Of a stretch of DNA of 54,105 nt, positions 4,568 to 28,449 are shown piece after piece; the first letter of the stretch is position 1; each line of letters starts with the position of its first letter. The notes under the pieces are model-generated. The model had not been told where the DNA came from. It saw nothing but the letters and a program-made list of their open reading frames with translations, and searched no databases. This DNA comes from an uncultured Planctomycetia bacterium. Its GTDB lineage: Bacteria; Omnitrophota; Gorgyraeia; Taenaricolales; CAZCCH01. The stretch is from assembly GCA_964497315.1 (NCBI GenBank), contig CAZCCH010000001.1:1-54105 (forward strand), given 5' to 3'. The position numbers and the translations under genes were made by a program.

Positions 4568-4605
4568 ATAAAAAAGCTGCCTAAATTTAACATATTTTGG
4601 CAGCC
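4568..4605 (-). terminator. Intrinsic-terminator-like hairpin plus U6; putative riboswitch expression platform
   Basis: Minus-strand RNA reads GCUGCC-A-AAAU-AUGUUAA-AUUU-A-GGCAGC followed by UUUUUUAUUG. The stem arms are 4576-4586 and 4594-4604, and the U-tract is the plus-strand A-run 4570-4575. It ends about 15 nt before the ATG at 4555. The left arm overlaps the 3' strand of the aptamer. Confidence 0.6.
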
Positions 4606-4668
4606 TTGCAATCCCTTAGGATCAATGGCTTTGCGTCCCCACCTTACGATAAGTTTGCCCTTTTCTAA
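4598..4668 (-). promoter_or_regulatory. c-di-GMP-I (GEMM-I)-like riboswitch aptamer in the 5' leader of the giant ORF
   Basis: Minus-strand RNA: AGAAAAGGGCAAACUUAUCGUAAGGUGGGGACGCAAAGCCAUUGAUCCUAAGGGAUUGCAAGGCUGCC. Elements: GGGCAAAC (4653-4660), a 6-bp stem capped by the GNRA tetraloop GUAA (4644-4647), GGGACGCAAAGCC (4627-4639), a second imperfect hairpin, and a closing GGCUGCC. Block identity and the 13-nt spacing match my memory of the V. cholerae Vc2 aptamer. Confidence 0.7.
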
Positions 4669-4846: not shown

Positions 4847-6421
4847 TTACTTAATGATATTCTCTTTTTTTAGTAATTTTTTCTTAGCTTTGAGGCCTTT
4901 TGAGAAACCACCCAATGTGCCATCTGAGCGGATTACGCGGTGGCAGGGGATAATACCAGGAAGGGGATTTTTGTTTAAGGCATTGCCTACTGCCCTTACT
5001 GCATCAGGGTTGCCTATTTGTTTAGCTACCCATTTATAAGAGCATGTCTGGCCTTTAGGGACTTTACTAACTGCCTTATATACCTTAAGCTGAAACTCTG
5101 TGCAGGTTTTAAGAAGCAGTTGTTTTCTTTTTAAACCAATACCAGGAATTTGATCTAAAATTGATTTCTTTGTTAATTTGCCTCTTAACACATGATGATA
5201 GGAAATAGCAAATCTGTGTGCCTCATCTCTTATTCTCTGGATTAACTGCAATGCCTTTGAATTTCTCTTTAATATGATTGGAGTCTTTTTCTCTAAAACA
5301 TGTAATCTCTCTAGCTTTTTTGCAATTCCAACAACAGGAATCTTTTTAAGACCTATAGATTTTAAGGCCTTGGTTGCTACTGAGACATGAGACCTGCCAC
5401 CATCAATAAGTATTAAATCAGGTAAAGGCTTATGCTCTTCTAATAATCTTTTATACCTTCTTGTTACGATTTCTTTTATCATTGCATAGTCATCAATACC
5501 TTCAACAGTTTTTATCTTAAAGCGTTTGTAATTTTGTTTATCGGCTAACAAATCAAAAAAACTTACCATGGAACCAACTGCCTCAGAACCAAACACATTG
5601 GAAACATCAAATGCCTCTATCCTCATTGGAGTTTTTGCTAAGCCCAACACCATCCTCAACTCTTCTAGTCTTTGTCTGCGGGTTATGGTTTCAAGATTAA
5701 AACCTTCAAAAGTAGCCTTCCCCTCGGAGACTGAGGCAAGTGCCTTTATCTGATCCCTAAGCCTGGCTGCTTCTTCATAGTCTTTCTTAGAAGATGCCTC
5801 TTTCATCCTAAAAGTCAAAGCCTTAACTAATTGTGTTTTCTTACCCTCTAAAAATAAACAAGCATCTTTTAATATCCTAGCGTATTCTTTTTTAGAAATC
5901 CTACCAACGCAAGGTGCAAGGCATTGACCAATATGATAATTTAAACAAGCAGTTTTTGGAAAAGTCTTACAGGTCCTCAAAGGAAAAATTTTTCTCATTA
6001 TAGCAAGCGCTTCTTTTAATAATTTAGCATTTGTATAACGCCCATAATATATAGAACCATCTTTTTTTCTTTGCCTCGCTATAAAAATCCTTGGGAATTT
6101 TTCCCTTTTCGTTACCTTAAGTAATGGATAACGCTTATCATCCTTTAAATCTATATTAAATTTAGGTCTATAGCGCTTTATCAGGCTCCATTCCAATAAC
6201 AGTGCCTCTGCCTCGGAACCCGTCGGTATACAACTAAAATCTTTAATATTACTAATTAAAATTCGGGTTTTGGTATCTTGAATATTCTTTTTAAAATAGG
6301 ACAAAACCCTTTTCTTTAAGGATAAGGCCTTTCCTATGTAAATAACCTTACCAGCCTTATCCTTCATCAAATAAACACCAGGAGAGTCAGGTAATTTTTT
6401 TAGTTTCTTTCTTATATCCAT
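4847..6421 (-). CDS. uvrC: Excinuclease ABC subunit C (UvrC) with the C-terminal HhH region replaced by an MGMT/Ogt-type alkyltransferase domain
   Basis: GIY-YIG N-terminus (PGVYLMKDKAGKVIYIGKA); UVR motif (DYEEAARLRDQIKAL); endonuclease region (IEAFDVSN, HRFAISYH); one HhH (IPGIGLKRKQLL). The last 85 aa (TEFQLKVYKAV...PCHRVIRSDGTLGGF) are an MGMT DNA-binding domain with the PCHR active site. Confidence 0.85.
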   Translation of the reverse strand: MDIRKKLKKLPDSPGVYLMKDKAGKVIYIGKALSLKKRVLSYFKKNIQDTKTRILISNIKDFSCIPTGSEAEALLLEWSLIKRYRPKFNIDLKDDKRYPLLKVTKREKFPRIFIARQRKKDGSIYYGRYTNAKLLKEALAIMRKIFPLRTCKTFPKTACLNYHIGQCLAPCVGRISKKEYARILKDACLFLEGKKTQLVKALTFRMKEASSKKDYEEAARLRDQIKALASVSEGKATFEGFNLETITRRQRLEELRMVLGLAKTPMRIEAFDVSNVFGSEAVGSMVSFFDLLADKQNYKRFKIKTVEGIDDYAMIKEIVTRRYKRLLEEHKPLPDLILIDGGRSHVSVATKALKSIGLKKIPVVGIAKKLERLHVLEKKTPIILKRNSKALQLIQRIRDEAHRFAISYHHVLRGKLTKKSILDQIPGIGLKRKQLLLKTCTEFQLKVYKAVSKVPKGQTCSYKWVAKQIGNPDAVRAVGNALNKNPLPGIIPCHRVIRSDGTLGGFSKGLKAKKKLLKKENIIK

Positions 6422-15431: not shown

Positions 15432-15514
15432 GAGAAAAAAATTAACTTTTTATTATCCTAACAATATGGTGGGTAATTTTGGAAGAAATTAAAGACATAA
15501 TAAAAATTTTCTTG

Positions 15515-15561
15515 GCTAAAAATAAAACGAGAGACTTCCATTTTTTGGTTGTCTCTCGTTT
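15515..15561 (-). terminator. Rho-independent terminator (minus strand)
   Basis: 11-bp perfect stem, aaacgagagac (15525-15535) / gtctctcgttt (15551-15561), with a 15-nt loop. On the minus strand it is followed by UUUUAUUUUUAGCC. Confidence 0.7.
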
Positions 15562-15584
15562 GGGCTAAGATTAACCAAGAAGAA

Positions 15585-15630
15585 CCCTTGGCATAAAATC
15601 TAGTTTGTAAAATTTATTTTATGCCAAGGG
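15585..15630. other. 15-bp perfect inverted repeat (stem-loop)
   Basis: cccttggcataaaat (15585-15599) and attttatgccaaggg (15616-15630) are exact reverse complements, separated by a 16-nt loop. Confidence 0.8.
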
Positions 15631-15733
15631 CTTTGCCTTTGTCGAGGAGGTGCCCATATTTTCCGTTGTCTTTTTAAAGATCTTTTAGAAAGTTACATAT
15701 CAAAAATACGAATGCTTCTAGTCCCTACTTTAC

Positions 15734-15762
15734 AATATAGCCGAATAAGACAATTTTGTCAA
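15734..15762 (-). promoter_or_regulatory. Near-consensus sigma70-like promoter with no adjacent ORF
   Basis: Minus strand TTTTTTTC-TTGACA-17 nt-TATATT, with the -35 at 15757-15762 and the -10 at 15734-15739. Confidence 0.6.
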
Positions 15763-15938: not shown

Positions 15939-15996
15939 ATGATACGGTTCTAAGCATAATTTCCTAAATTAACCGTATCATTTAGAACCGTATCAT
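15939..15996. repeat. Three copies of the 10-bp motif AACCGTATCA (one inverted); the outer pair forms a 13-bp inverted repeat
   Basis: tgatacggtt at 15940-15949; aaccgtatca at 15971-15980 and 15986-15995. atgatacggttct (15939-15951) is the exact reverse complement of agaaccgtatcat (15984-15996). Confidence 0.85.
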
Positions 15997-16027: not shown

Positions 16028-17461
16028 TTATCTTGAAGGGTTTAGTGATATATCAGCTGTGCAATAGCCCTCAGTGAATATATCCGCCCCTTGAGGGTCT
16101 TTCACGCTAGCTATCTGCCTGCCAAAGGAATCTATGAACACAGAAAAACCTGTATTTCCGCATCTAACCACAGGAACCTTGTTTTCCACTGCCCTAAATA
16201 CAGAGGCTTGCGCGTGTTGATAGGGAGCACTGGATTTTCCAAACCAAGCATCGTTTGTAATATTTACTAAAAAATCTGCGCCATTTTTAACAAAGCGTTT
16301 TGTTAAGTCCGGAAAGATATCTTCAAAACATATAAGCGTACTAAACTTTGCAGTTGTTGGGCTAAGTTGCTCAAAAACAGTATATTCTTTACCAGGCTTA
16401 AAGTCTCCAATTGGCGCAGGTGAAATTTCTCTTATAAAGCCTAAACTTTTTTCAAAAGGAACATACTCACCAAATGGAACCAATTTTATCTTATCATATC
16501 TTTGTTGAATACTTCCATCTTTCAAAACAAAAAGGGCGCTGTTTGTATATTTGCCTGATGGTAATGAAATTGGAGCACCTATTAAAAGGTTTGTCTTTAA
16601 CTGTCTTGTTAAATGCCTTATTTGCCTAAAAATTACCTGATCTTCATAAGGATCTGCTGGTATGGCTGTCTCAGGCCAAATAATAAGATCTGGTTTATCC
16701 AGGAATGCTAGCTTGGAAAGGTGTATGTATTTTCCTAAAATTTCCTGGGTTTTTTCTGGATCCCACTTATCTTCTTGTAGGATGTTTCCTTGTATAACTG
16801 AAATCCTCACTTTATCTCTCTTGTCTAAATCTTTTGAGGTTTTAAGTTGAGAAAACCCATATATATAAACACCCGTTATGACTATCAAGATGCAAACTAC
16901 CACATATAACTTTTGCTTTAATTGTGTCTTTAGGTAAAATAATCTATACAAAGCAATATTCACTGCCATAATCAAAAAAGACACTCCCCAGACACCTACA
17001 AAACTTGCAATCTGTATTACTGGCAAATTAAGCCATTGAGAATAACCAAGTAAAACCCATCCAAAACCACTTAATGCATTAGCCCTTATAAATTCTAAAC
17101 CAACCCAGAGACTGCTTATAAGAACAGTTTCCAACATTAAGGGTAGTTTCTTAGAGAATATAATATTTGAAAGAAAACAAAAAACACCAAAATATAATCC
17201 AAGATATAATACAAGTACTATAAGACCAAAGACACTAACATATGAAAGCCAATATAGGCAACCAAAGAAAAAAACTATACCTGCTAGATATCCTAGCAAG
17301 AAGGCATTTTGGGGTTTTTTGCCAAAGATGGCTGCAAACAATGGTATGAATGCAAACCATGCAAAAAGGTATATATTCGTATTGGGAAATGATAAGGTGA
17401 GTAATGTGGCAGAAATTATGCTTAAAAAAATACAAGACCACTCTTTTTGTATATTTTTCAT
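16028..17461 (-). CDS. lnt: Apolipoprotein N-acyltransferase
   Basis: Polytopic N-terminal half plus a CN-hydrolase domain (LIIWPETA, KIKLVPFGEYVP, LICFEDIFP). The start overlaps the RND2 stop by 4 nt. Confidence 0.85.
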   Translation of the reverse strand: MKNIQKEWSCIFLSIISATLLTLSFPNTNIYLFAWFAFIPLFAAIFGKKPQNAFLLGYLAGIVFFFGCLYWLSYVSVFGLIVLVLYLGLYFGVFCFLSNIIFSKKLPLMLETVLISSLWVGLEFIRANALSGFGWVLLGYSQWLNLPVIQIASFVGVWGVSFLIMAVNIALYRLFYLKTQLKQKLYVVVCILIVITGVYIYGFSQLKTSKDLDKRDKVRISVIQGNILQEDKWDPEKTQEILGKYIHLSKLAFLDKPDLIIWPETAIPADPYEDQVIFRQIRHLTRQLKTNLLIGAPISLPSGKYTNSALFVLKDGSIQQRYDKIKLVPFGEYVPFEKSLGFIREISPAPIGDFKPGKEYTVFEQLSPTTAKFSTLICFEDIFPDLTKRFVKNGADFLVNITNDAWFGKSSAPYQHAQASVFRAVENKVPVVRCGNTGFSVFIDSFGRQIASVKDPQGADIFTEGYCTADISLNPSR

Positions 17462-20400
17462 AAAAACTGTGGTCTCCTGAATAATTTAGAAAATATTCGC
17501 TTAACATCTTCAAACATCAGAAACATGCATGGTACTATAACAAGTGTTAATATAGTTGAGGTTGCCAAACCAGACATTACAGTTATAGCCAATGGTGCCC
17601 AAAGGTTTGCTTCTGGGCTTCTGTCTATGGCCAATGGTAAAAGCCCTAAAATGGTTGTGCAGGTAGTCATCATTATAGGCCGCAAGCGTGCTTCTGCTGC
17701 TACCAATGTAGCCTTTAGGTTCCTAAAGCCTTCTTTGTGCAATCGATTTAGATAGTCAATTAATATTATTGCGTTGTTTACAACTATCCCTCCAAGCATT
17801 ATCGAACCCATAAGCACACCTACATTTATAGGCTTAGAAAGCCTTTCTAAGACTATTACAACGCCTATTGCAGCTAGTGGCACTGTAACCATTATAATAA
17901 ACGGTTGTGCATAAGACTCCAACATTGCTGCCAATACAAGGTATATCAGAACCAAAGTCAAAACTAGTGCAAAGGAAAGTTCTTTTTGATTGCGTTGCAT
18001 CCTCCAATAGTTTTCGCCAAAACGCCAGTGATAGTCTTCTGGGAATTCCATATCTTGTATTGCCTGCCTTACTAACTCTGCTGCTGTTCCAAAGGGGTGC
18101 TTTCCCCTATTTGCGCTAACTTGGATCATGCGGTTTTTGTTCTTCCGCCATATCTTGCTGGGTCCTGTGGCTGGCACAAGATCTGCAATCTGCTCTAAAT
18201 AAATCTTCTCACCCTTAGGAAGCACAACTGTTAGTTTTCTTACTTGGTCTAGGGTTTCTCTATCTGTCTTTCTTAGGCGTGCAACAACCTCTACTTCCCT
18301 TGCCTTGGTGTGATACAAAGTAGCCCTTAGGCCTCTCATCTTTGCATGAAGGACATTGGCTACATCTTCAACTGTTAAATTAAAATCTGCTGCCTTTTGC
18401 TTATTTACAACAACCTGCCATTCAGGTCGTCCCTTTCGCCAGCGTAGTTTCAAATCCGTCAAACCTTCCACAGTCTGCATCCTTGTAAGCATACCTACGG
18501 CTAGTTCATTTAATACTTCATAATCCCATCCATATATTTCTAATATAACCTCGTTCGTTTCTACCTCTTGTGGTTCTTCAAAATATATAAATGCCTCCTT
18601 GTATTGCGCTTCTACCTTTCCTACTTTCCCTCTAAGCTCTTCTATTACCTGTTTGGTTGTCCTTTTTCTTTCTTCTATAGGAACTAGCTTGACATATACC
18701 TTAGAAGACCATGGCTCAACCCTTGATGAAAAAGTCTTCATTTCAGAAACTTCTCCTAAGACTTCTTCTATTTGCTTTACAGCCTGGTCTGATATATCCA
18801 ATTTTGCACCTGTGGGAAGCTCCACAAAGATAGTAAAATCTTCCTGCTCTGTAGTACCCACAAACTCCTTCTGCAGCTTTGGATAGACAAACATGCATAC
18901 TAAAACAAACGCAACGCAAGCTGCTGCTAAAAAAATGTATCTGTTTCTTATTCCATTTAGTAAAAATTTGCGGTATATCCTATGGAAAAAACCTGGTTTC
19001 TGCAATGGTCTTACAGGCAATTTTTTCAACTTAGGACTTGCTTCATCTTGAGTTTCAAATGTTGAGCCTTTAGCTTTCTTCTTTTTTCCTCCTGGCAAAC
19101 GCGCTGCTAGCATGGGCACCAAAGTCAGCGATACGAAAAGTGAAGCCAAAAGAGAAAATGTTACTGTCATAGCCAGGCCTGCATAAAGTATCCTTATTTC
19201 TTTATTTACAAATACTATTGGCAAAAAGACAACTATCGTAGTAATGGTGGCTGCAATTATTGCTAATGTTATCTCTTCGCTTCCCTCTTGGGCGGCATCT
19301 GTTTTAAAAAGGCCTATCTGGCGTTTTTTAAAGATATTTTCCAGTACAACGATAGAGCTGTCAACCAACATTCCAATACCTAATGCCAAACCACTCAATG
19401 TCATAATATTCAATGAAATCTTTCTAAAATACATAAAACAGAACGTAGCAACTACTGAGATAGGGATTGCACAAGCTATGATAATAGTTGAGCGCAAATC
19501 TCTTAAAAACAGAATTAAGACAACAACTGCTAAAATCGCTCCATATAAAAGTGCCTTCTTCACCCCGTTTATGGCTCGCAATATAGACTCTGACTGATTA
19601 TACGTTGGTATCATAGATATCTTCTTTTTTCGCTCCTGGACTATTTTTTCTGTTTCCTCGATAATCTTCTTGGCGACCTCCACCGTATTGGCGGTGGATT
19701 CTTTTTGTATATACAATGAAACGACGGGTAATTTATCCACCCTGGCAAAACTTCTCGGTTCTAAATATGAGTCCTTTACATCTGCTACATCTTTTAATCG
19801 AATAATGGCCCCACTTGGCGCAACCGCCACACCGGTTTCTTTTATATCTTCGATTGACTGAAATTCTCCTACAGTCCTTATTAGATATTTATCTCTTGTT
19901 TTTTCCACATCTCCAATTAAAAGATTTAAGTTGTTTAAGCTTAAACTATTTATTACCTTGCCTATGGGCAAGCCATAGCCCTGCAGTTTATTTTGGTTTA
20001 CCTCAACTAAAATCTTTCTTTCCCTTCCCCCACCTATATCCACATTTGCTACGCCGTCTATTCGCATAATGCGTTCTTTTATGCTCTCATCTACCATTTT
20101 GCGCAGTTCTTCAGTTGTGTAGCGTGTTCCTGTTACTGCCATTATAACTATAGGATAATCTGACTGTTCGAACTTAGCTATAACGGGTTTTTCTATTTCT
20201 TTTGGCAATTTGTTTCTAGCTTTGGAAAATTTTTCTCTGGCCTCTAATGCTGCAAAGTCCATATCTATCCCAGGTTCAAAGGTCATTACTACACGGCTAC
20301 GCCCCTCTTCAGATATTGAGATTATATCTCGTAAATTGCTGACTGTACCTATCGCTTCTTCAATAGGTTTTGTAACTAAGTTTTCTACTTCAACGGGTGG

Positions 20401-20565
20401 CATGCCACCTCTGATATTAATAAAAATAGATATATCTCCAAAACTAAAATTTGGCATAAGTTCAACCGGCAATCTCTGCAGGCTTATTATGCCTAAGACA
20501 AGAATGGCTGAGAATACCATTAATATAGCTATTGGACGATTTATGGAAATTTTAGGTAAGCCCAT
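17458..20565 (-). CDS. RND efflux transporter permease (second of a tandem pair)
   Basis: 1035 aa; N-terminus PKISINRPIAILMVF; GLALGIGMLVDSSIVVLENI; GGIVVNNAIILIDY; ARLRPIMMTT. Confidence 0.9.
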   Translation of the reverse strand: MGLPKISINRPIAILMVFSAILVLGIISLQRLPVELMPNFSFGDISIFINIRGGMPPVEVENLVTKPIEEAIGTVSNLRDIISISEEGRSRVVMTFEPGIDMDFAALEAREKFSKARNKLPKEIEKPVIAKFEQSDYPIVIMAVTGTRYTTEELRKMVDESIKERIMRIDGVANVDIGGGRERKILVEVNQNKLQGYGLPIGKVINSLSLNNLNLLIGDVEKTRDKYLIRTVGEFQSIEDIKETGVAVAPSGAIIRLKDVADVKDSYLEPRSFARVDKLPVVSLYIQKESTANTVEVAKKIIEETEKIVQERKKKISMIPTYNQSESILRAINGVKKALLYGAILAVVVLILFLRDLRSTIIIACAIPISVVATFCFMYFRKISLNIMTLSGLALGIGMLVDSSIVVLENIFKKRQIGLFKTDAAQEGSEEITLAIIAATITTIVVFLPIVFVNKEIRILYAGLAMTVTFSLLASLFVSLTLVPMLAARLPGGKKKKAKGSTFETQDEASPKLKKLPVRPLQKPGFFHRIYRKFLLNGIRNRYIFLAAACVAFVLVCMFVYPKLQKEFVGTTEQEDFTIFVELPTGAKLDISDQAVKQIEEVLGEVSEMKTFSSRVEPWSSKVYVKLVPIEERKRTTKQVIEELRGKVGKVEAQYKEAFIYFEEPQEVETNEVILEIYGWDYEVLNELAVGMLTRMQTVEGLTDLKLRWRKGRPEWQVVVNKQKAADFNLTVEDVANVLHAKMRGLRATLYHTKAREVEVVARLRKTDRETLDQVRKLTVVLPKGEKIYLEQIADLVPATGPSKIWRKNKNRMIQVSANRGKHPFGTAAELVRQAIQDMEFPEDYHWRFGENYWRMQRNQKELSFALVLTLVLIYLVLAAMLESYAQPFIIMVTVPLAAIGVVIVLERLSKPINVGVLMGSIMLGGIVVNNAIILIDYLNRLHKEGFRNLKATLVAAEARLRPIMMTTCTTILGLLPLAIDRSPEANLWAPLAITVMSGLATSTILTLVIVPCMFLMFEDVKRIFSKLFRRPQFL

Positions 20566-20566
20566 T

Positions 20567-23500
20567 TTACACCAGCTCGTAATAGCGACCCCTGGCCAAA
20601 GGACCTACGCCGCGGATTAGACCTTTATCAACTAATTCCTTTAAGTCTCTTGCAGCAGTAGGTACAGATACGCCAAAAAGGGTAGCATATTGTTTGCGTG
20701 TAATCTTTTTATTCTCCGTAAGATAATCTATAAGTTTTCGTTGTCTTTCGGTTAGGCCTGATGTATCAGGCTTTGTGGGTTGCACTGGAGGTGAAAGCGG
20801 TGTAGGTGGCTTTGTTGGTTTTGGCCTTGGTGGCTCTGGTTTTTTCTCTGGAGACGCAGGTGGTGCGGGTGTTTTTTGTTCTGATGGAGGAACTATTTCT
20901 TTTTGCGGAGGAGGCATTTCTATTATAGGTAGCTTTGGAGGAGCTTCTGTTTTTTCAAGCAGTGGTTGTTTTGGTGGCTTTTCTTTAGGCTTTCGTGGCT
21001 CTTCTTTTGGTAATACCTCTTTTATTAATTTTTGCTTTGGTTTTTCCTTTAGTTTTTCCTCTTTAGGGGCAGGCATCTGAATTGTAGTTGGTTCTAAAGA
21101 AACCTCCTCTTCTCCAAGAATAGCAGTCTCCACTCTTGGTTTGGCCTTAAAGAAACTAAACATACCTTCAAACACTAGATAGATTGTTGGTATTACTACT
21201 AAGGATAAAAATGTAGATATTATCAACCCGCCCATAACTGCTATGGCCATGGGCATTTGTATTTCTGCGCCTTGGCTTAAGCCTAAGGCCAGTGGACAAA
21301 GGGCAAAAATGGTTGTCATTGCAGTCATTAGTATCGGCCGTAACCTTGCCTGAGCTGCTGTTAAAACTGCGGGCAAGGCCTCATATTTATCACGTCTTCG
21401 CAAGGTATTCACATAATCAATTAGTACGATACCATTATTGACCACTATGCCACCAAGTACAATTATACCCAAAACTACCATTATTGATAGAGGTGTGTCT
21501 GTAACGCGCAACGCAAATGCCACTCCTATAATAGAAAGCGGGAAGGTAAAGATAATGATAAACGGCTGCCATAAGGACTCAAATTCTGCTGCCATAATCA
21601 TACAAACCATAACCAATGACAATATAAGAGCAAAGCGAAGGCTATTAAATGATTCTCGCATTTGAAGATGTTCGCCGGTTAATCTAGCTGTATAACCAGA
21701 AGGTAATTCCTTTTCTAGTTTTTCAAGCATTAAATTTATATCATTTGCGACTTCGCTAAAACTCCTTTTGAGTATATTTGCTGAAATCATGATTACCCTT
21801 TGCTGATCTAGTCTTTGAATTTGACTCGGGCCTTTTCCTATGCCCATGTATGCCACCTCTGCTAAGGGGACCTCTATCTCTAAGGGAGAATGCACAATTA
21901 ATCGCCTTATCTTACTTATATCTTTTCTGTCTTGTGGCCTTAAGCGAACCCTCACATCTATTTCCCTACCTTGTTCTTTAAATTCTGTGGCAACATAACC
22001 CTTCATGGCAGTCTGTGCTGTCAATGCGATATCACTAACTGAAAGATTATACTGTGCCGCCCTGTCTTTTCTTACATTTACCTTTGCCTCTGGAGCTGGT
22101 GGGACAAAAGACGACTTTACGCTATAAATTCCATCTACGAGCTGTAACTTTTTCTGCACGTGGTCTGAGATATTCTTTAGATCCGCTAATTCTTCTCCCT
22201 TTACCTCTATAACAATAGGCGCACTTGCTTGAAACGCCATTTGAAATACACTTTCCTGCACAATATATTCTAACTCAGCGCCTTCCAAATTTTTCTCTTT
22301 TAAGTTAGTTTTAAACTGCGTGAGAAAATCGGCTGTTGAGATATATCTAAAATCCTGCGGGTGCGTCTCTTTTACAAAAAGCTTCGTAATAGCTTGCACC
22401 CATAAGAATTTTGACCTTTTATATCCCGCTAAAGGTTTCAGGTCTACCATTATCCTGGCCTGATGTGGACCCAAGGTTTCAATGCCACCCCCTAAGGCTT
22501 CCTTTTCCCTGCTTGAACCAATAGCAACTGTTACGCTTTTGATTTGGGAAAACTTAAAAAGGACGCTTTCTATTTTCTTGACAACCCTATTTGTAACAGC
22601 CAAGCGTGTCCCTGGAAACATATCCACCTTGATAGTAAATTGTCCTTGGTCTACCTTTGGTAAAAATTCTTTATCAAGACCTATAAATATCTTTAAGACA
22701 AGTAAAAATATTACTGCAACGCAAAAAAGGCTCAAGAATTTATTGTTCAAAAATAGATTAAGTCCGCCTACATAGGCATTAGAGGCCTTTTGCATAGAAA
22801 ATATACCTTTTAGTCCCTTCTTGTCTACATTTGCACTGCTAGAATCATCTTTGAGGGGATTGGCATCTTTTTTTGTTTTAACCATAGATGCCAACACGGG
22901 TATCAATGTAAGAGCTACAACAAGGGAAGATAAAAGTGAAAACACTACTGTGAAGGCAAGCTCTTTGAAAAGCTGGCCTGCAATACCAACTACAAATGCC
23001 ATAGGTAAAAACACTGCTATTGTAGTAAGGGTAGAACCTACTATTGCTGAACTTACCTCACTTGCACCGAATATGCTTGCCTCTTTTGCAGATTTACCTT
23101 CTTGTCTGTGTCGGAAAATATTTTCCAGGACCACAATAGCATTATCAACCAACATTCCAACACCAAGGGCAAGTCCACCCAGTGAAATCATATTAAGCGT
23201 AATCCCTGAAAAATACATAAGACTAAAAACTGCTAGAATGGATATAGGAATGCTAGCTGTTACAATTAATGCAGAAGTTACTCTTTTTAAAAATATTAAT
23301 AACACCAGAAATGCTAAAATACCTCCTCCGATGGCAGCATCTCTTACACCATTGATGGAGGCTTTTATAAATTTTGATTGATCGTAGGCAATTTCCATTT
23401 TTATCTGGTGAGGAATATCAGCCTTTAATTCCTTAAGTGCTTGCTTTACATTATTTGCCACCTGGAGGGTATTCGTACCAGCCTGCTTTATTATTGACAG

Positions 23501-24409
23501 AGAAATATTTTCTTTCTTGTTATACCGTGAAACTGTTGTTTTTTCTTTAAATGTGTCTTTTACCTTGGCGACATCTTTTAGTAAAATAAGTCTTCTTTCC
23601 TTCTCTTCCTGTTCATCTGGAGGAACCATTACGCCTTCTCTTTGCTGTTTATACTGTTTGTCCTCATCAAGGGCGATGGCAATGTCCTCCATCTCTGAAA
23701 TTGCCTGAAATTCTCCGATAGTCCTAATTAGATACTCATAGAAAGTCTCCTCAATTGTCCCTGCAGGATAATTTAAATTGGCCTTCTTTAGGGCATCTGC
23801 AATTGCTACAACTGAAATACCAGCAGCCTGCAATCTACCCTGGTCAACTTCAATGAGAATTTCCCTCTCTAGGCCGCCGCTTATATGAACTGCCGCAACA
23901 CCATCTGTTTTCTCTAATTCGTTCTTGATTACTTTTCTTGTAAACTGCAAAAGTCCGCCCTGAGAAATTCCTTCTGCGGTTACATTCAAGACGACTACTG
24001 GCAATTCAAATGGATTGAATTTCATTACTATTGGGTCTTCGCAACCGCGGGGAAGACGCTCTTTTACTAAATCTATCTTCTCCCTAACGCCCAAGGCGGC
24101 AAAATCCATATTTCTGCCCCAATCAAACTCTGCTATTATTAAAGAGAGCTCCTCCTTTGAGGTAGAGCTTATCTTGCGAAGACCGCTGACTGTACCAATA
24201 ACCTCTTCTAGAAGTTTCGTTACAAGTATTTCTATTTCTTCAGGTGCGGCATCCTTATAAAATGTAGCAATGGTGATTTGTGGGTAAGTTATAGGTGGGA
24301 ATAATTCTTGCGGCAAGCGCCCCCAAGAAATAATACCAAGCAACAGTATTCCTAAGAATACCATAAAGATAGTAACTGGTCTTTTTATAGATAAGTTCGG
24401 TAAACCCAT
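20567..24409 (-). CDS. RND efflux transporter permease with a C-terminal Pro/Lys/Glu-rich linker and a winged-HTH domain
   Basis: The RND core covers aa 1 to about 1098 (GLALGVGMLVDNAIVVLENI, GGIVVNNGIVLIDY, ARLRPILMTA). A 120-aa low-complexity linker follows (20756-21115). The last 62 aa are LTERQRKLIDYLTENKKITRKQYATLFGVSVPTAARDLKELVDKGLIRGVGPLARGRYYELV (20570-20755). Confidence 0.85.
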   Translation of the reverse strand: MGLPNLSIKRPVTIFMVFLGILLLGIISWGRLPQELFPPITYPQITIATFYKDAAPEEIEILVTKLLEEVIGTVSGLRKISSTSKEELSLIIAEFDWGRNMDFAALGVREKIDLVKERLPRGCEDPIVMKFNPFELPVVVLNVTAEGISQGGLLQFTRKVIKNELEKTDGVAAVHISGGLEREILIEVDQGRLQAAGISVVAIADALKKANLNYPAGTIEETFYEYLIRTIGEFQAISEMEDIAIALDEDKQYKQQREGVMVPPDEQEEKERRLILLKDVAKVKDTFKEKTTVSRYNKKENISLSIIKQAGTNTLQVANNVKQALKELKADIPHQIKMEIAYDQSKFIKASINGVRDAAIGGGILAFLVLLIFLKRVTSALIVTASIPISILAVFSLMYFSGITLNMISLGGLALGVGMLVDNAIVVLENIFRHRQEGKSAKEASIFGASEVSSAIVGSTLTTIAVFLPMAFVVGIAGQLFKELAFTVVFSLLSSLVVALTLIPVLASMVKTKKDANPLKDDSSSANVDKKGLKGIFSMQKASNAYVGGLNLFLNNKFLSLFCVAVIFLLVLKIFIGLDKEFLPKVDQGQFTIKVDMFPGTRLAVTNRVVKKIESVLFKFSQIKSVTVAIGSSREKEALGGGIETLGPHQARIMVDLKPLAGYKRSKFLWVQAITKLFVKETHPQDFRYISTADFLTQFKTNLKEKNLEGAELEYIVQESVFQMAFQASAPIVIEVKGEELADLKNISDHVQKKLQLVDGIYSVKSSFVPPAPEAKVNVRKDRAAQYNLSVSDIALTAQTAMKGYVATEFKEQGREIDVRVRLRPQDRKDISKIRRLIVHSPLEIEVPLAEVAYMGIGKGPSQIQRLDQQRVIMISANILKRSFSEVANDINLMLEKLEKELPSGYTARLTGEHLQMRESFNSLRFALILSLVMVCMIMAAEFESLWQPFIIIFTFPLSIIGVAFALRVTDTPLSIMVVLGIIVLGGIVVNNGIVLIDYVNTLRRRDKYEALPAVLTAAQARLRPILMTAMTTIFALCPLALGLSQGAEIQMPMAIAVMGGLIISTFLSLVVIPTIYLVFEGMFSFFKAKPRVETAILGEEEVSLEPTTIQMPAPKEEKLKEKPKQKLIKEVLPKEEPRKPKEKPPKQPLLEKTEAPPKLPIIEMPPPQKEIVPPSEQKTPAPPASPEKKPEPPRPKPTKPPTPLSPPVQPTKPDTSGLTERQRKLIDYLTENKKITRKQYATLFGVSVPTAARDLKELVDKGLIRGVGPLARGRYYELV

Positions 24410-24430: not shown

Positions 24431-25747
24431 TTATTCTAAGCTAAATGGCAATCCTTCATCTACTCCAACTTCTGGTTCAGCTGATAAAGGTTGCTGGGTT
24501 TCCAGTATTTCTACTTTAACCCCATCGGAAAGTTCACCCCTTGCCTCTGTTATTACAAGCTCTCCTTCTTCTAGCCCCCAAGATATGACTGCCTGATCTG
24601 AGGTAAGATAACCTGGTTCTACTTCTTTTAATTTGGCTGTCACCTCAGGAGTGACTACATAAGTCGAGTCAAAGGTACCATCGCCATCTTGGTCAATTAG
24701 GCAAGAGTTTGGAACTACTATTACATCATCTTGTTCAAATACAGATATATTGGCTCTGGCAAACATGCCAGGCAAAAGCTTTGCCTCGGGGTTTTCTACT
24801 TTTATCTTGCAAGTAAGAGTTCTTGATTTTCCTTCTATGGTAGGCAATATATTATCTATTGGACCTGTAAAGGCAGTTTCAGGATAGGCATCCACTGTAA
24901 TATTGGCCATCTGACCTAATGCTATCCTTTGTAATTCTTTTTCTATCACACCTACTTCTACAAATACACTGTCTATATCTACAATGCTTGCAATTTTGTT
25001 CTGGCTTGTTATAAACTCACCTGGTTCTGCCTCCTTAGTACCCATAACACCATCAATTGGTGAAAGAAGATATGTCTTATCTAATTCTGCTTTGGAGAAT
25101 GCAACTTCTTTTTCTGCTGACACTGCTTGACTTTTGGCATTTTCATATTCAAGTTCTATTTCTTCTAGTTTAGGCTTTATTATCGCACCTATTTTGTACA
25201 GGTTTTGATAAATCTCTAATTTTTTCTTGGCCGTCAAGGTTTGCGTCTTAGCTGTCTTTAATTTCGACTGGCTATATTCTACTTTTAAAACCGCATCTTT
25301 CTCATTGAGTGTAGCAATAACGTCTTGTGCTTCTATCAAATCGCCTTCTCTAAAATTTATTGAGTCAATCACACCATTTACTTCAAAACGCATTTCAATC
25401 TCTTTTTGACCCTTTATGGTACCCATGGTAGGCAATATATCTTTAAAATCTTCCTTTGCAATTTTGTATGCAATAACCGGTACCACCTTTGCCATCTGAA
25501 GTTCTTCGTCTGCTTTTTTCTCAGTAGGCTGAGGGATTTTAATAAAACTTGAAATAAAAGGAACCTTCGCTAAAAATGTATGCAGACTTGGACCATAGGC
25601 AAAAAATAAAGCTGCCAAGCCAACTATAACAACCAAAATCGTAATAAGTCTGTTGGCTTTATTTCTTGTTCTTTTGCTTGTTTGTTTTTCTTTTGCTTTT
25701 ACTTTTTCTTTCCCTTTTTCTTTCTTTCCTCTAATTTTCATCTTCAT
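24431..25747 (-). CDS. Efflux periplasmic adaptor (membrane fusion protein, HlyD/AcrA family) with a Lys-rich N-terminal tail
   Basis: Basic tail MKMKIRGKKEKGKEKVKAKEK, a TM anchor, a coiled-coil hairpin region, and a beta-barrel block (VEVGVIEKELQRIALGQMANITVDAYP). Confidence 0.8.
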   Translation of the reverse strand: MKMKIRGKKEKGKEKVKAKEKQTSKRTRNKANRLITILVVIVGLAALFFAYGPSLHTFLAKVPFISSFIKIPQPTEKKADEELQMAKVVPVIAYKIAKEDFKDILPTMGTIKGQKEIEMRFEVNGVIDSINFREGDLIEAQDVIATLNEKDAVLKVEYSQSKLKTAKTQTLTAKKKLEIYQNLYKIGAIIKPKLEEIELEYENAKSQAVSAEKEVAFSKAELDKTYLLSPIDGVMGTKEAEPGEFITSQNKIASIVDIDSVFVEVGVIEKELQRIALGQMANITVDAYPETAFTGPIDNILPTIEGKSRTLTCKIKVENPEAKLLPGMFARANISVFEQDDVIVVPNSCLIDQDGDGTFDSTYVVTPEVTAKLKEVEPGYLTSDQAVISWGLEEGELVITEARGELSDGVKVEILETQQPLSAEPEVGVDEGLPFSLE

Positions 25748-25765: not shown

Positions 25766-27841
25766 TCAATCAAAATAATCAACAATCCCTATTGCCTTAT
25801 TCAGATTTGCCAAGGCCGTCTTATAACTTGCTATTGCCTGATGATAGAGAGCCTTTTCATCGGCCAGTTTTATCTTGGATTCTAGAACCTGCGATAGGAG
25901 TGCTTCGTTTAACGCAGCTTCTGCTGATAAAACCTTTGCCTCTTCTTCTCTAAACCTTATCTTCCTGCTGGTGTTTTGCAATTGCATAATCGCTTTTTCG
26001 TAACTATTAAATGCCTCTCTTACTTCTAAATTGATAGTTTTTTCCATTTCTATAAGTTCGTTTTCGGCTTTAAGTTTTCCTATAAAGGCAGATTGTTTCT
26101 CTGAAAGACTAGCTAGGTTATCAAAAATGCCCACTTCAGTCGAATGGGTTATTGAACCGGTCCTTGTCGTCTGGCCAAGCTTTGGACTTGTTTCATTGTC
26201 ATTAAATGTATATGAGCCTGTACTTTTTCCAAAAGGCTTTGTAACCTTAACACCTACATACCAGTCTCTGTTAACATCCAAATCTTCTGTTTTGTATGCA
26301 CCGCCTGACTCACCTAAAAATCCGGATAGATCCACCTTGAATTTATCCTTGCTTCTTGCAATAAGGTCTTCAAAATCACTGGATTCCAAAAGTAATCCCT
26401 GGATATGTATTTCTGACCTATTCTCAAAAGCAAGTTTAAGGCATTCGTTTAACTCTATCTCTTTTGCTTCATATTCTGTATCAAATGCAATCTGTATATC
26501 TGTAGCAGGATCTAATTCCATTGTCTGTAAAAGTGCGATCTTAGTTAAAGCTACTTCTTTATCCGCTATGGCTAACTGATATTCAACTTGATTGACCTGC
26601 GTTTGGACATTTAAAAGCTCCAGCTGTGTGGAAAGCCCGATATCAAACCTTTTCTTGGCTGAAGATAATCCACTGCGCACTTCATCAATGAGTCCCTTTT
26701 GGTCAGAGAGGTTCAAAAAGGCTGCCGCTAATTCATAAAATTTTTCTGTGACTTTTGCAATAATCTCGGTTTCAGCTTTGGTGTATTTCTCAATTGCCAC
26801 TTCGCGATTGACCTCTGCCTGGCGGAGGCTGAGCTTAAGCCTGCCACCATAATATAGAGGCTGTTCAAGCTGTAAACCGTAGGATTTTTCTATAAAGGTT
26901 GTTCCGTATACATCTCCTTCGGTATGCGTATATTTGGCTGTTGCCTGAGGATAAAGACCTCTTTTTGCTTCATCCACCTTCATATCAGAAAGACTTATTT
27001 CCTCCTCGGCAATTACAAGAGGCAAATAGCTATAAGTAGCTATATCAATACAATCTTTGAATGAAAGTGCCCCTTTTTGTGTGGGGGCATCTACCTTTGG
27101 GAGAGATGTCGCTTTAGATACAATCTCTTCTCTAATCTTTTCAAATATTTCGTCTCCTACAGACGGCACCTTTTTGGCTTTTGCTAGTTTTAACTGGACT
27201 GGTTCTATTTCTTGTAATTTTGGTTTAGGTGTTACTGGCTTAGGTTTTGCTGTTAGAACTTGTTTCTTCTCCTGCGTTGGCATTGGCTTTGGTGTGGGGG
27301 GTTGTCTTCTTGGTGTTAATTTCAATGTAGGGACTTGCACAGGTTTTGGTTTTTGTATTAGCTTCTGTCTTGGTCTTGCGAGTTTTACTGATTTTACCTG
27401 ACCTATATCAACTGTAATCCGATTTACTCTCTGGTATTCTTTATATGAAACAGGCTTCTCTAGCTCTATCGTGACCATATCAACCGGATAGAGGCCACCC
27501 TCACCCATTTGTTCTAAAGACTCTGTTATTTTTATCCTGGTAACTAAACCTTCTTGCAGCGGGATAATTTTCTCTTCTAATTCACTATAGGCTTTTTCAA
27601 CAGGGTCTATGGCTATAGTTTTATTATCTTTGCCTAAATAAAAGCTAAAGAACTCAAAATAGCGGTTAGCTGTGATAATAACTCTTGAACCTTGGGTTTG
27701 ATTTTGTATTTGAATATCTGAAATAATTAGGGGTTCTTCAGAATTGGAGGGGTATTGGGATAAACAATGAGAAGGGCATGCTACCTGCAGCAAACCGATA
27801 ACCAAAATCGCTGTTAAAAATAAACCTGCTTTGTATCTCAA
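25766..27841 (-). CDS. TolC-like outer-membrane efflux protein with a ~250-aa N-terminal extension (AMIN-like domain + Pro/Lys linker)
   Basis: The C-terminal ~430 aa show the duplicated OEP/TolC-type helical pattern. TTG start with the SD AAGAGGAG. The N-terminus has a signal-like segment, then SRVIITANRYFEFFSFYL...ITVDIG, then the KPKPVQVPT...KPKPVTPKPK linker. Confidence 0.7.
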   Translation of the reverse strand: MRYKAGLFLTAILVIGLLQVACPSHCLSQYPSNSEEPLIISDIQIQNQTQGSRVIITANRYFEFFSFYLGKDNKTIAIDPVEKAYSELEEKIIPLQEGLVTRIKITESLEQMGEGGLYPVDMVTIELEKPVSYKEYQRVNRITVDIGQVKSVKLARPRQKLIQKPKPVQVPTLKLTPRRQPPTPKPMPTQEKKQVLTAKPKPVTPKPKLQEIEPVQLKLAKAKKVPSVGDEIFEKIREEIVSKATSLPKVDAPTQKGALSFKDCIDIATYSYLPLVIAEEEISLSDMKVDEAKRGLYPQATAKYTHTEGDVYGTTFIEKSYGLQLEQPLYYGGRLKLSLRQAEVNREVAIEKYTKAETEIIAKVTEKFYELAAAFLNLSDQKGLIDEVRSGLSSAKKRFDIGLSTQLELLNVQTQVNQVEYQLAIADKEVALTKIALLQTMELDPATDIQIAFDTEYEAKEIELNECLKLAFENRSEIHIQGLLLESSDFEDLIARSKDKFKVDLSGFLGESGGAYKTEDLDVNRDWYVGVKVTKPFGKSTGSYTFNDNETSPKLGQTTRTGSITHSTEVGIFDNLASLSEKQSAFIGKLKAENELIEMEKTINLEVREAFNSYEKAIMQLQNTSRKIRFREEEAKVLSAEAALNEALLSQVLESKIKLADEKALYHQAIASYKTALANLNKAIGIVDYFD

Positions 27842-27953: not shown

Positions 27954-28045
27954 AACCGTATCAGGCTGCATTAACCGTATCAAATGAAACTGTAGCATAT
28001 TTATAACCCATTGTCAAGAAAAAACTTCAGAATTATGATACGGTT
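27954..28045. repeat. Three copies of AACCGTATCA (one inverted) bracketing the efflux promoter: candidate operator sites
   Basis: aaccgtatca at 27954-27963 and 27973-27982; tgatacggtt at 28036-28045. The 27973-27982 copy lies 7-16 nt downstream of the -10. The 28036-28045 copy lies 19 nt upstream of the -35 and directly abuts the stop codon of the 138-aa ORF. Confidence 0.8.
27989..28017 (-). promoter_or_regulatory. Sigma70-like promoter of the efflux operon
   Basis: Minus strand GTTTTTTC-TTGACA-17 nt-TACAGT, with the -35 at 28012-28017 and the -10 at 27989-27994, about 140 nt upstream of the TTG start at 27841. Confidence 0.6.
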
Positions 28046-28449
28046 TCCGGGGGATTTGTTGGGGGTGGGGTTGGTTGTTGTTGGATAGACTTAATATCAG
28101 GGGCTTCTTTGGTCTTTTCTGCCTCTGCTAGAAGCGCCTTTTTTCTTCTGTAGCGGCGCATATATTCTCTCATATAACCCCTGTGTCTTTCCTTGTATTT
28201 CTGTCTATATTCTTTAAAATACTGGGGGTTATTTTTTCTCCATTTTTGGATTCTTTGCTTATATAGCCTCTTCCAATAGGGGCTTCTGGTTTCGTCCATC
28301 TTGAAATAATGGGGATTGCTAACCCTCCATTGCTTCATATTACCAAGCTGTCTCTGCCTCTGGCAGGCCACATCAGAGCAAAACTTCTGTGAATTAGGCC
28401 TGTATTTAGATGGGGTAAATTCTCTTTGGCAAATTGGGCAAATAGGCAT
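28033..28449 (-). CDS. Small, highly basic zinc-ribbon protein (hypothetical)
   Basis: CPIC...18 aa...CSDVAC (four Cys), then Lys/Arg/Tyr/Trp-rich helices (YWKRLYKQRIQKWRKNNPQYFKEYRQKYKERHRGYMREYMRRYRRKK) and a Pro-rich tail. It has its own promoter. Confidence 0.6.
   Translation of the reverse strand: MPICPICQREFTPSKYRPNSQKFCSDVACQRQRQLGNMKQWRVSNPHYFKMDETRSPYWKRLYKQRIQKWRKNNPQYFKEYRQKYKERHRGYMREYMRRYRRKKALLAEAEKTKEAPDIKSIQQQPTPPPTNPPETVS

Follow-up and report, generated by a model that had tools for sequence, protein, structure and literature searches.

In a 54,105-nucleotide (nt) stretch of DNA from an uncultured Planctomycetia bacterium that GTDB places in the Omnitrophota (assembly GCA_964497315.1, contig CAZCCH010000001.1, positions 1 to 54,105; hereafter the window), we describe an efflux pump subunit that carries its own predicted DNA-binding domain. 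The first of two tandem resistance-nodulation-division (RND) permease genes of an efflux operon encodes a complete permease, RND1, which runs on through a disordered leash into a C-terminal winged helix-turn-helix (wHTH) domain. We regard it as practically certain that this RND-linker-wHTH fusion is real and conserved; on the sequences compared, it is a conserved family of the Omnitrophota that is under selection. Both ends of its operon carry clustered copies of the 10-mer TGATACGGTT, a candidate binding site of the tail.

A complete RND permease with a winged-helix tail

The open reading frame (ORF) of RND1-HTH lies at 20567-24409 on the (-) strand and encodes 1280 aa, with its stop codon at 20567-20569. 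Residues 1-1095 (21125..24409, (-) strand) are an HAE1-type permease core with 12 transmembrane (TM) helices: Pfam ACR_tran covers residues 5-1080 at model positions 3-1020/1021 (E 4.8e-240), a full-length match to this 12-TM model with two periplasmic loops. NCBIfam recognizes a generic RND permease, and the RND_permease_1/2 subfamily scores fall under the subfamily cut-offs. The leash, residues ~1096-1211 (20777..21124, (-) strand), is 116 aa of disordered, predicted cytoplasmic sequence with 28% Pro, 17% Lys, and 15% Glu. An earlier note on this DNA, made from its letters alone, had described just such a succession of a complete RND core, a Pro/Lys/Glu low-complexity stretch, and a terminal HTH for 20570-21115, which corresponds to residues ~1099-1280.

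The wHTH itself comprises residues 1212-1280 (20570..20776, (-) strand). In a profile scan, these last 69 aa taken in isolation pass the Pfam cut-offs for both HTH_DeoR (33.8 bits, cut-off 21) and HTH_24 (33.0 bits, cut-off 21.9). AlphaFold2, run with a small alignment, models the tail as a three-helix winged HTH with two wing strands (helices 10-22, 27-33, and 38-50; strands 54-57 and 65-68; order H-H-H-beta-beta) at a mean pLDDT of 89. The note had likened the domain to the HTHs of Fic and AlbA_2 proteins, and the structural databases bear this out: among PDB sequences, the C-terminal wHTH of the Fic protein 8cil matches best, and a Foldseek search with the model retrieves the wHTH folds of MarR, CadC/ArsR, and DIP2311 at query-normalized TM-scores of 0.7-0.8, with DIP2311 (3lmm) superposing at a root-mean-square deviation of 1.1 Å. 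An S25-type ribosomal protein is also among the fold matches. RND C-termini are cytoplasmic, as in the AcrB topology, and by this analogy that of RND1 would be as well. Membrane anchor and predicted DNA-binding domain sit in one polypeptide.

The proton relay of AcrB, an Asp-Asp pair in TM4 and a Lys in TM10, is altered in RND1. Its TM4 reads LVDNAIVV, which keeps the first Asp only and has Asn at the position of AcrB D408, and its TM10 reads IVVNNGIV, with Asn at the position of K940. Both substitutions are common to RND1, to the second permease RND2, and to tail-less orthologues, so that, as far as sequence can tell, they are a trait of the subfamily and not a loss specific to tail-bearing subunits. 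On the same ground we rejected the idea that the HTH-bearing subunit is a degenerate, non-pumping paralogue: nothing in its relay residues marks it as a dead pump.

Conservation of the fusion

The exact 1280-aa protein is found on 4 contigs from at least two assembly sources (ENA ERZ23499079 and JGI 3300009127). The earlier note allowed that the fusion might be a one-off created by a lost stop codon and proposed a database search for RND plus HTH architectures; an orthologue scan of one genome per GTDB species instead yielded 30 loci, all from metagenome-assembled genomes (MAGs) labelled Omnitrophota or “uncultured Planctomycetia”, with GC contents of 0.41-0.67. Wherever enough upstream DNA is present (25/25 loci), the HTH ends a single uninterrupted ORF of 1165-1447 aa, and at the remaining 5 of the 30 the frame is open up to the contig end. 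The HTH, at 52-67% identity to that of the window, is better conserved than the pump (RND core 50-56%). The leashes in between, 27-302 aa long and rich in Pro, Glu, Lys, and Ala, cannot be aligned between species. Two stretches of the HTH do not vary among the 31 sequences compared, S.PT.ARD of the predicted recognition helix and GP...GR.Y of the wing.

A word-index protein search with the tail returned only 5 short “proteins” with Pro-rich N-termini. Three of the five are encoded at the beginning of contigs, immediately upstream of an RND gene, and in the two for which DNA was available the frame is open to the contig edge; these are therefore truncated C-termini of the same RND-HTH architecture. 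An exhaustive HMMER search of the tail against 1.84 billion representative proteins gave 73 matches at E <= 1e-10. At least 35 of the 78 top matches (E below ~1e-10) hold RND core sequence, and the rest are mostly Pro/Glu/Lys-rich C-terminal fragments; at 50% identity or above, nearly all are RND fusions or C-terminal fragments thereof. Weaker matches include small free-standing HTH proteins and what, judged by the N-terminal sequences, appear to be C-terminal domains of AlbA_2/HATPase_c_4- and Fic-type proteins, the closest relatives of the tail outside RND fusions (40-50% identity). Four of the top matches (P0006, 1182 aa; P0008, 2918 aa; P0056; P0075) have 4-8 tandem copies of the same wHTH subfamily in each polypeptide.

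A 10-mer repeated at both ends of the operon

The operon has the order OMF-MFP-RND1(HTH)-RND2, with an outer membrane factor (OMF) gene first and the gene of a periplasmic adaptor (MFP, membrane fusion protein) second; in the window lnt follows RND2. The order OMF-MFP-RND1-RND2 is kept in every locus that is long enough. Exactly six copies of TGATACGGTT are present in the 54-kb window, as compared to ~0.1 expected by our own arithmetic, and no further copies with one mismatch were found there. All six lie at the operon ends (27954-28045 and 15940-15995), in agreement with the remark of the earlier note that the operon promoter is bracketed by a repeated motif.

Upstream of OMF we predict a sigma-70 promoter, TTGACA-N17-TACAGT with an upstream TG (27989..28017, (-) strand; 10/12 match), with transcription starting at ~27982. 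In a motif scan, two sense sites fall at 27973-27982 (~+1..+10) and 27954-27963 (~+20..+29), both on the (-) strand, and one inverted site falls at 28036..28045 on the (+) strand (~-55..-64), where it overlaps the last codons of the upstream gene. That gene, ORF138 (28033..28449, (-) strand), encodes a basic, Arg/Tyr-rich protein with a Zn-ribbon (CxxC...C..C) that matches no Pfam or NCBIfam family; the ribbon is N-terminal (CPICxxx...CxxxxC) and is accompanied by Arg/Tyr-rich repeats (NPxYFK...). The 3' boundary cluster has three sites just past the lnt stop codon, at 15986-15995(-), 15971-15980(-), and 15940-15949(+).

Across the 30 orthologous loci, taken with 10-kb flanks and counting sites with at most one mismatch, motif density is 3.6/kb in the 550 bp around the OMF start and 3.8/kb around the RND2 stop, compared to 0.17/kb in the remaining 405 kb, a ~21-fold enrichment at the two operon ends. 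A matrix of 83 sites gives a strict 10-mer, T-G-A-T/g-A-C-G-G-T-T, in which G2, A3, A5, and G8 never vary and whose flanks are not conserved. Starts of same-orientation copies are spaced with peaks at 11 bp (10-12 bp in 11/20 pairs) and 21 bp, that is, one or two helical turns, which fits head-to-tail binding of winged helices on one face of the DNA. Most orthologous promoters have a predicted TTGACT/TTGACA-N17-TAAGCT-like element. The tandem sites lie just downstream of the predicted -10 in the window and in a high-GC clade; at L045, L048, L049, and L052 (loci of our set are numbered with the prefix L) an antisense pair abuts the predicted -35 instead.

The motif follows the tail

Many close RND1 homologues end within 25 residues of TM12. 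Searching with the C-terminal part of the RND1 core, we assembled a tail-less sample of eight Omnitrophota loci (L178-L182 and L262-L264; RND operon loci only, 95.8 kb). These have the same synteny where they are long enough, RND1 is 44-58% identical to that of the window, and RND2 starts at most ~50 nt from the RND1 stop, in most cases overlapping with it. One or more sites are present at 18/19 promoters of tail-bearing and 0/3 of tail-less operons (Fisher p = 0.0026), the sites of the former lying over the predicted +1..+30 or abutting the -35; for the RND2 ends, the corresponding counts are 14/24 and 0/7 (Fisher p = 0.0087). The tail-less loci hold four scattered one-mismatch sites in their 95.8 kb, 0.042/kb, which is background; RND loci of other phyla (1.2 Mb), collected as a control by a genome scan with the RND1 core and mostly encoding distant RNDs, show 0.048 sites/kb and no such tail.

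In a neighbour-joining (NJ) tree of 256 core residues, three small tail-bearing groups are placed among tail-less lineages. In the one such case that could be compared, promoter sites are present in the tail-bearing L055 and missing from L180, its tail-less neighbour in the tree. The tail-less L179 and L180 moreover keep an ORF138 homologue (50-54% identity) directly upstream of the operon, yet have no motif, so that the motif follows the tail and not ORF138.

Occurrence of the motif elsewhere

A scan of all species genomes for two perfect motif copies 0-12 bp apart returned at least 118 stretches, as compared to ~14 expected by chance on our own estimate. Fifty-one of the 118 matches listed are from Omnitrophota-type MAGs, several of these genomes with two or more contigs each, and six of the assemblies contain an RND-HTH operon as well. 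The listed Omnitrophota loci fall mainly into four classes. The largest (20/51) is the rnpA-yidC-jagN-parA region, with the pair right after the stop of a short Jag_N-like gene (the jagN|parA junction) and, in 3/6 loci, 2-3 nt before the parA ATG. In a second class (~9/51), the pair abuts the 3' end of a tRNA-Glu gene in opposite orientation, ahead of a ~82-aa two-TM gene, a FIST-like gene, or a giant gene. Second OMF-like, ORF138-like, or giant-protein loci make up ~8/51 and RND-HTH operon ends 5/51, with ~9/51 left unclassified. The 3' cluster of the RND operon is itself the upstream region of a giant ORF in 14/21 tail-bearing loci, and elsewhere precedes GspF-like secretion genes. The motif is thus not specific to this operon, and the tail, if it is the motif binder, serves a small regulon or anchor set and not a private operator.

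Outside the Omnitrophota, 17 acidobacterial loci with perfect pairs are among the matches listed, and the 13 that we examined lack an RND-HTH and adjoin tyrosine-integrase-like genes. An identical perfect pair, TGATACGGTT-N1-TGATACGGTT, is present in Terriglobia and Bryobacterales MAGs at L068, L073, L075, L079, L085, L099, and L107 and further at L111, L117, L129, L131, L132, and L139, several of these pairs standing next to a ~375-aa tyrosine-integrase-like gene. The acidobacterial pairs appear to belong to an unrelated mobile element in which this 10-mer may serve, for instance, as an arm-type site. Matches in Bacteroidales, Cytophagales, and Prevotella are longer tandem-repeat arrays.

We also considered other identities for the motif. 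Terminal inverted repeats of a mobile element were rejected: the (+) strand order of the six window copies, → ← ← ... ← ← →, shows mirror symmetry instead of reverse-complement symmetry, transposase and recombinase genes are lacking, and the sites keep their positions across species. An RNA element in a 5' untranslated region or terminator was rejected because conserved sites face either way with respect to the adjoining genes: they are in sense orientation ahead of parA and in antisense orientation behind tRNA-Glu. The distance of 2-3 nt to the ATG at three parA loci led us to consider a promoter -10 as well (TGnTACGGT resembles an extended -10); as a general reading it was rejected, since the copies flanking the tRNA would then drive transcription antisense into it, and since the RND promoters have -35/-10 elements apart from the motif. 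The use of both orientations argues for a protein site at the DNA level, and against an RNA or promoter element.

A proposed membrane-tethered regulator and its alternatives

We think it probable, to a fair though far from decisive degree, that the HTH tail binds TGATACGGTT; for the full model of a membrane-tethered autoregulator and DNA anchor, our confidence is only a little better than even. In this model, RND1 is the first of two tandem permeases in a tripartite OMF-MFP-RND1-RND2 efflux system, and its tethered wHTH would bind the non-palindromic 10-bp site in phased tandem copies (starts 11 or 21 bp apart) and inverted copies. Its targets would be the transcription start of its own operon and the 3' boundary, which is the giant-gene upstream region in most relatives; further targets would be jagN|parA, rnpA|yidC, the tRNA-Glu 3' flank ahead of the small membrane-protein gene, and the second OMF/giant-protein loci. 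The leash would let the wHTH reach membrane-near DNA, 116 aa at ~0.3 nm per residue spanning up to ~35 nm by our own estimate. The trimeric RND assembly would present its winged helices locally, and two or three could bind head-to-tail. The sites over the transcription start suggest negative autoregulation: the operon would be repressed in proportion to the pump subunits in the membrane, and binding would at the same time hold the bound loci at the inner membrane. Dosage feedback and localization are favoured over allosteric sensing because the leash is disordered and hypervariable. We infer both repression as the effect and the consequences of tethering DNA to the membrane.

A wider role can be put forward tentatively, in which the tail is a chromosome-envelope tether that, through the phased TGATACGGTT arrays it binds, fastens a few conserved loci to the inner membrane of these ultra-small cells. 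The loci would comprise the efflux operon, the giant-gene upstream regions, the rnpA-yidC-jagN-parA region, which is origin-proximal in many bacteria, and the tRNA-Glu/small-membrane-protein locus. If so, the amount of an envelope machine would be coupled to how genes of envelope, secretion, and segregation are expressed and to where they lie in the cell, in a covalent, transporter-based counterpart of Noc or of transertion.

Several points weigh against the tail as binder and regulator. The link between HTH and motif derives, at the level of sequence, from the co-occurrence of the two. Tail-bearing pumps are mostly one block of the NJ tree (46/52 sequences), so the Fisher samples are not phylogenetically independent, and tail and motif could merely be co-inherited traits of a clade. 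The cluster at the RND2 end is present in only 14/24 tail-bearing operons. All promoters are consensus predictions, and the positions of sites relative to them vary by clade, which leaves the sign of regulation uncertain. Finally, a motif that is not private to the RND operon also fits a separate, global DNA-binding protein.

The strongest competing explanation, which we consider doubtful, is that another protein of the clade, a soluble global regulator or nucleoid-associated factor, binds TGATACGGTT, and that the tail binds a different sequence, holds the nucleoid close to the envelope through non-specific DNA binding, or is a protein-protein module. Some winged helices bind proteins or RNA, and the S25-type fold matches of the tail would suit such a role; the motif is genome-wide, most perfect pairs lie away from the RND operon, and shared ancestry in what is largely one clade could account for the co-occurrence. 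Against this, the motif clusters strongly at both ends of the RND-HTH operon, as is typical of an autoregulated DNA-binding protein, and is absent from 8/8 orthologous operons without the tail, among them some that stand close in the tree to tail-bearing ones. Over a GC range of 41-67%, an invariant 10-mer goes together with an invariant predicted recognition helix. The only other putative DNA-binding gene to recur beside the sites is ORF138, and tail-less loci have it without the motif.

A release mechanism, in which the leash is a protease substrate and envelope or efflux stress frees a soluble wHTH regulator by cleavage, is unlikely. A long, exposed, disordered, Pro-rich linker would be accessible to proteases, and such a mechanism tolerates variable linker length; however, we saw no conserved cleavage motif or conserved segment in the unalignable linkers of the orthologues, no protease gene conserved in the operon, and no internal start codon in RND1 ahead of the HTH that would point to a separately made domain.

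Quite unlikely, too, is ORF138 as the motif-binding regulator of the operon, with the HTH tail incidental. Its homologues stand directly upstream of OMF in 12 tail-bearing loci, ORF138-like genes adjoin motif pairs at other loci (L071, L088, L100, and L154), and its basic Zn-ribbon sequence makes nucleic-acid binding plausible. Yet the two tail-less loci that have homologues have no motif, six low-GC loci (L045, L048, L049, L052, L055, and L057) have the promoter motif without an adjacent ORF138, and no known DNA-binding family of Pfam or NCBIfam matches it.

The earlier note had suggested a sensor, in which the conformational or transport state of the pump is relayed to the HTH and substrate load controls transcription. 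Its attraction is a transporter covalently linked to a DNA-binding domain, together with the precedents of PtsG-Mlc, MalK-MalT, and LysP-CadC, but we judge it very improbable: it is not plausible that an allosteric signal passes through a disordered leash that is 27-302 aa long and lacks conserved sequence, and no conserved structured junction follows TM12. A sequencing or assembly artefact, a lost stop or chimeric join between an RND gene and a small HTH gene, has in its favour only the prior plausibility that attaches to metagenome assemblies and was rejected as a negligible possibility, given an identical ORF in independent assemblies, one open frame in 25/25 orthologues of differing species and GC, and contig-truncated tails that stay open to the contig edge.

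Operon, neighbouring genes, and other features of the window

The tripartite context of RND1 is complete, with OMF and MFP immediately upstream. The OMF gene (25766..27841, (-) strand; 691 aa) opens the operon and matches Pfam OEP at E 2.2e-34. Its product is unusually long: the strongest OEP/TolC matches span ~260-440, leaving a ~250-aa N-terminal extension without a domain match, and alignments with orthologues often begin near residue 250. The 438-aa MFP (24431..25747, (-) strand) matches HlyD_D23/HlyD_3 and scores 214 bits with TIGR01730 (RND_mfp). RND2, the paralogous tail-less permease (17458..20565, (-) strand; 1035 aa; ACR_tran E 6.6e-234), begins 1 nt past the RND1 stop codon. The two permeases are ~34% identical, form orthologue groups of their own, and are adjacent in all loci; the RND2 group retains 48-67% identity in all loci, and the tail is found on RND1 only. 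The last gene of the unit, lnt (apolipoprotein N-acyltransferase; 16028..17461, (-) strand; LNT_N and CN_hydrolase), overlaps the RND2 stop by 4 nt; it was not found after RND2 in the other orthologous loci and closes the unit in the window genome only. The immediate neighbourhood of the operon has no TetR/MarR-type gene, as the earlier note had observed.

Homologues of ORF138 precede OMF in the 12 tail-bearing and 2 tail-less loci already mentioned. The ~82-aa two-TM protein family (FKVLAW...GEIIRLLLxIE; L110:2187-2444, L113:1215-1463, and L076:6087-6335) recurs in two places: after tRNA-Glu and a motif pair, and between ORF138 and OMF, the latter in RND-HTH operons of the high-GC clade (e.g. 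upstream of L035:3238). Downstream, the gene after RND2 in 14/21 tail-bearing loci is a giant ORF of more than 1100-2200 aa, cut by the locus end (e.g. L046:9163-15579); at L010, L045, L049, and L054, RND2 is followed by a coiled-coil protein and a GspF-like protein, and the tail-less L178 precedes a 10,166-aa gene. The RND-HTH operon thus appears to border the conserved secretion/giant-gene neighbourhood that has been described in the Omnitrophota. Directly after one tail-less orthologous operon stands a free-standing 192-aa HTH_17 protein (L181:14436-15014), which may be a conventional regulator where the pump is without a DNA-binding tail of its own.

Elsewhere in the window, we note a candidate small RNA at 15500-15762 on the (-) strand, between the 3' motif cluster and a CBM9 gene. 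A strong sigma-70-like promoter (TTGACA-N17-TATATT, 11/12 match) is followed there by ~200 nt in which no ORF exceeds 35 aa, by two long hairpins, and by an intrinsic terminator. Folding of the RNA gives a z-score of -5.7, and no Rfam family matches. An ORF at 1-4555 on the (-) strand, which runs off the window, is immediately preceded by a c-di-GMP-I-GGC riboswitch (4595-4668, (-) strand; 64 bits, over the gathering score). This ORF, of more than 1518 aa with a signal-peptide-like N-terminus and no Pfam domain, probably encodes one of the very long Omnitrophota proteins, apparently under c-di-GMP control. At 4847-6421 on the (-) strand, a UvrC-like protein (GIY-YIG, UVR, and UvrC RNase H) carries, fused to its C-terminus, the DNA-binding domain of an O6-methylguanine-DNA methyltransferase (DNA_binding_1, E 3.5e-33).

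Novelty and comparison with known systems

The earlier note knew of no described RND-HTH fusion, and our full-text literature searches likewise found none published. Of the papers on Omnitrophota genomes, PMC10066038 and 10.64898/2026.06.07.730766 leave RND, efflux, TolC, helix-turn-helix, and DNA-binding unmentioned, and 10.1101/2023.11.21.568195 does the same for efflux, TolC, RND, AcrB, and helix-turn-helix. The preprints on Omnitrophota giant genes, in their passages on giant-gene context, describe type II secretion system-like and pilus loci instead. Membrane-anchored transcription factors and transporter-linked regulators are already known; as far as we have found, neither the RND-HTH architecture nor its candidate cognate site has been described before. 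Should the tail bind the motif, no connection yet seen between an envelope machine and gene expression would be more direct, the number of pumps in the membrane being read on the DNA. The Omnitrophota, which have no cultured model and of whose regulation almost nothing is known, would in that case also gain a defined protein-DNA pair. The other motif positions (parA, yidC, tRNA-Glu, and giant genes) suggest that the same protein may organize the chromosome relative to the envelope, and the tail may also control the giant genes on which a predatory or host-dependent way of life of the Omnitrophota is believed to rest.

The nearest sequence relatives of the tail outside the RND fusions, the C-terminal wHTHs of Fic and AlbA_2/HATPase_c_4-type proteins (8cil and 3lmm), are parts of soluble proteins, where they come after an enzymatic or ATPase-like domain and have DNA targets that are for the most part uncharacterized. 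For the pump, the nearest likeness is to MdtABC/MuxABC, which also have one adaptor and two tandem paralogous, translationally coupled RND permease genes. The best equivalog-type NCBIfam matches are to MdtB/MuxB, MdtC, and MdtA, with scores far under equivalog level for permeases and adaptor alike (for MdtB/MdtC, NF007798, 390 bits versus a cut-off of 1584; NF007905, 420 versus 1774). The present subfamily has Asn at the AcrB D408 and K940 positions in both RND1 and RND2, and the Mdt/Mux permeases are without a C-terminal domain.

In the trigger transporters PtsG-Mlc, MalK-MalT, LysP-CadC, and DctA-DcuS, the transporter stands at the head of a transcriptional circuit whose regulator is retained at the membrane. 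There, transporter and DNA-binding protein are separate and interact reversibly, whereas RND1-HTH is one polypeptide in which no signal-dependent step is evident. Noc, a ParB-like nucleoid occlusion protein, is sequence-specific, contacts both chromosomal sites and the membrane, and recruits DNA to the membrane, an action that would also be expected of a pump-tethered HTH with several chromosomal sites. Noc differs in being peripheral, with an amphipathic helix, a CTP switch, and palindromic sites, in contrast to the asymmetric 10-mer in tandem arrays described here, and it has no homology to the tail.

A further comparison is with ToxR, CadC, and TcpP, in which a wHTH covalently tethered to the inner membrane binds direct-repeat promoter sites while membrane-bound. 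Like RND1-HTH, they unite a winged helix and a membrane anchor in one protein. Their wHTH is N-terminal and of OmpR type, with one TM helix and a periplasmic sensor domain, whereas that of RND1 is C-terminal and DeoR/HTH_24-like, sits on a leash of 27-302 aa, and has a complete 12-TM RND subunit as its anchor. RND1-HTH may work like the ToxR class, but by its sequence it is no member of the ToxR family.

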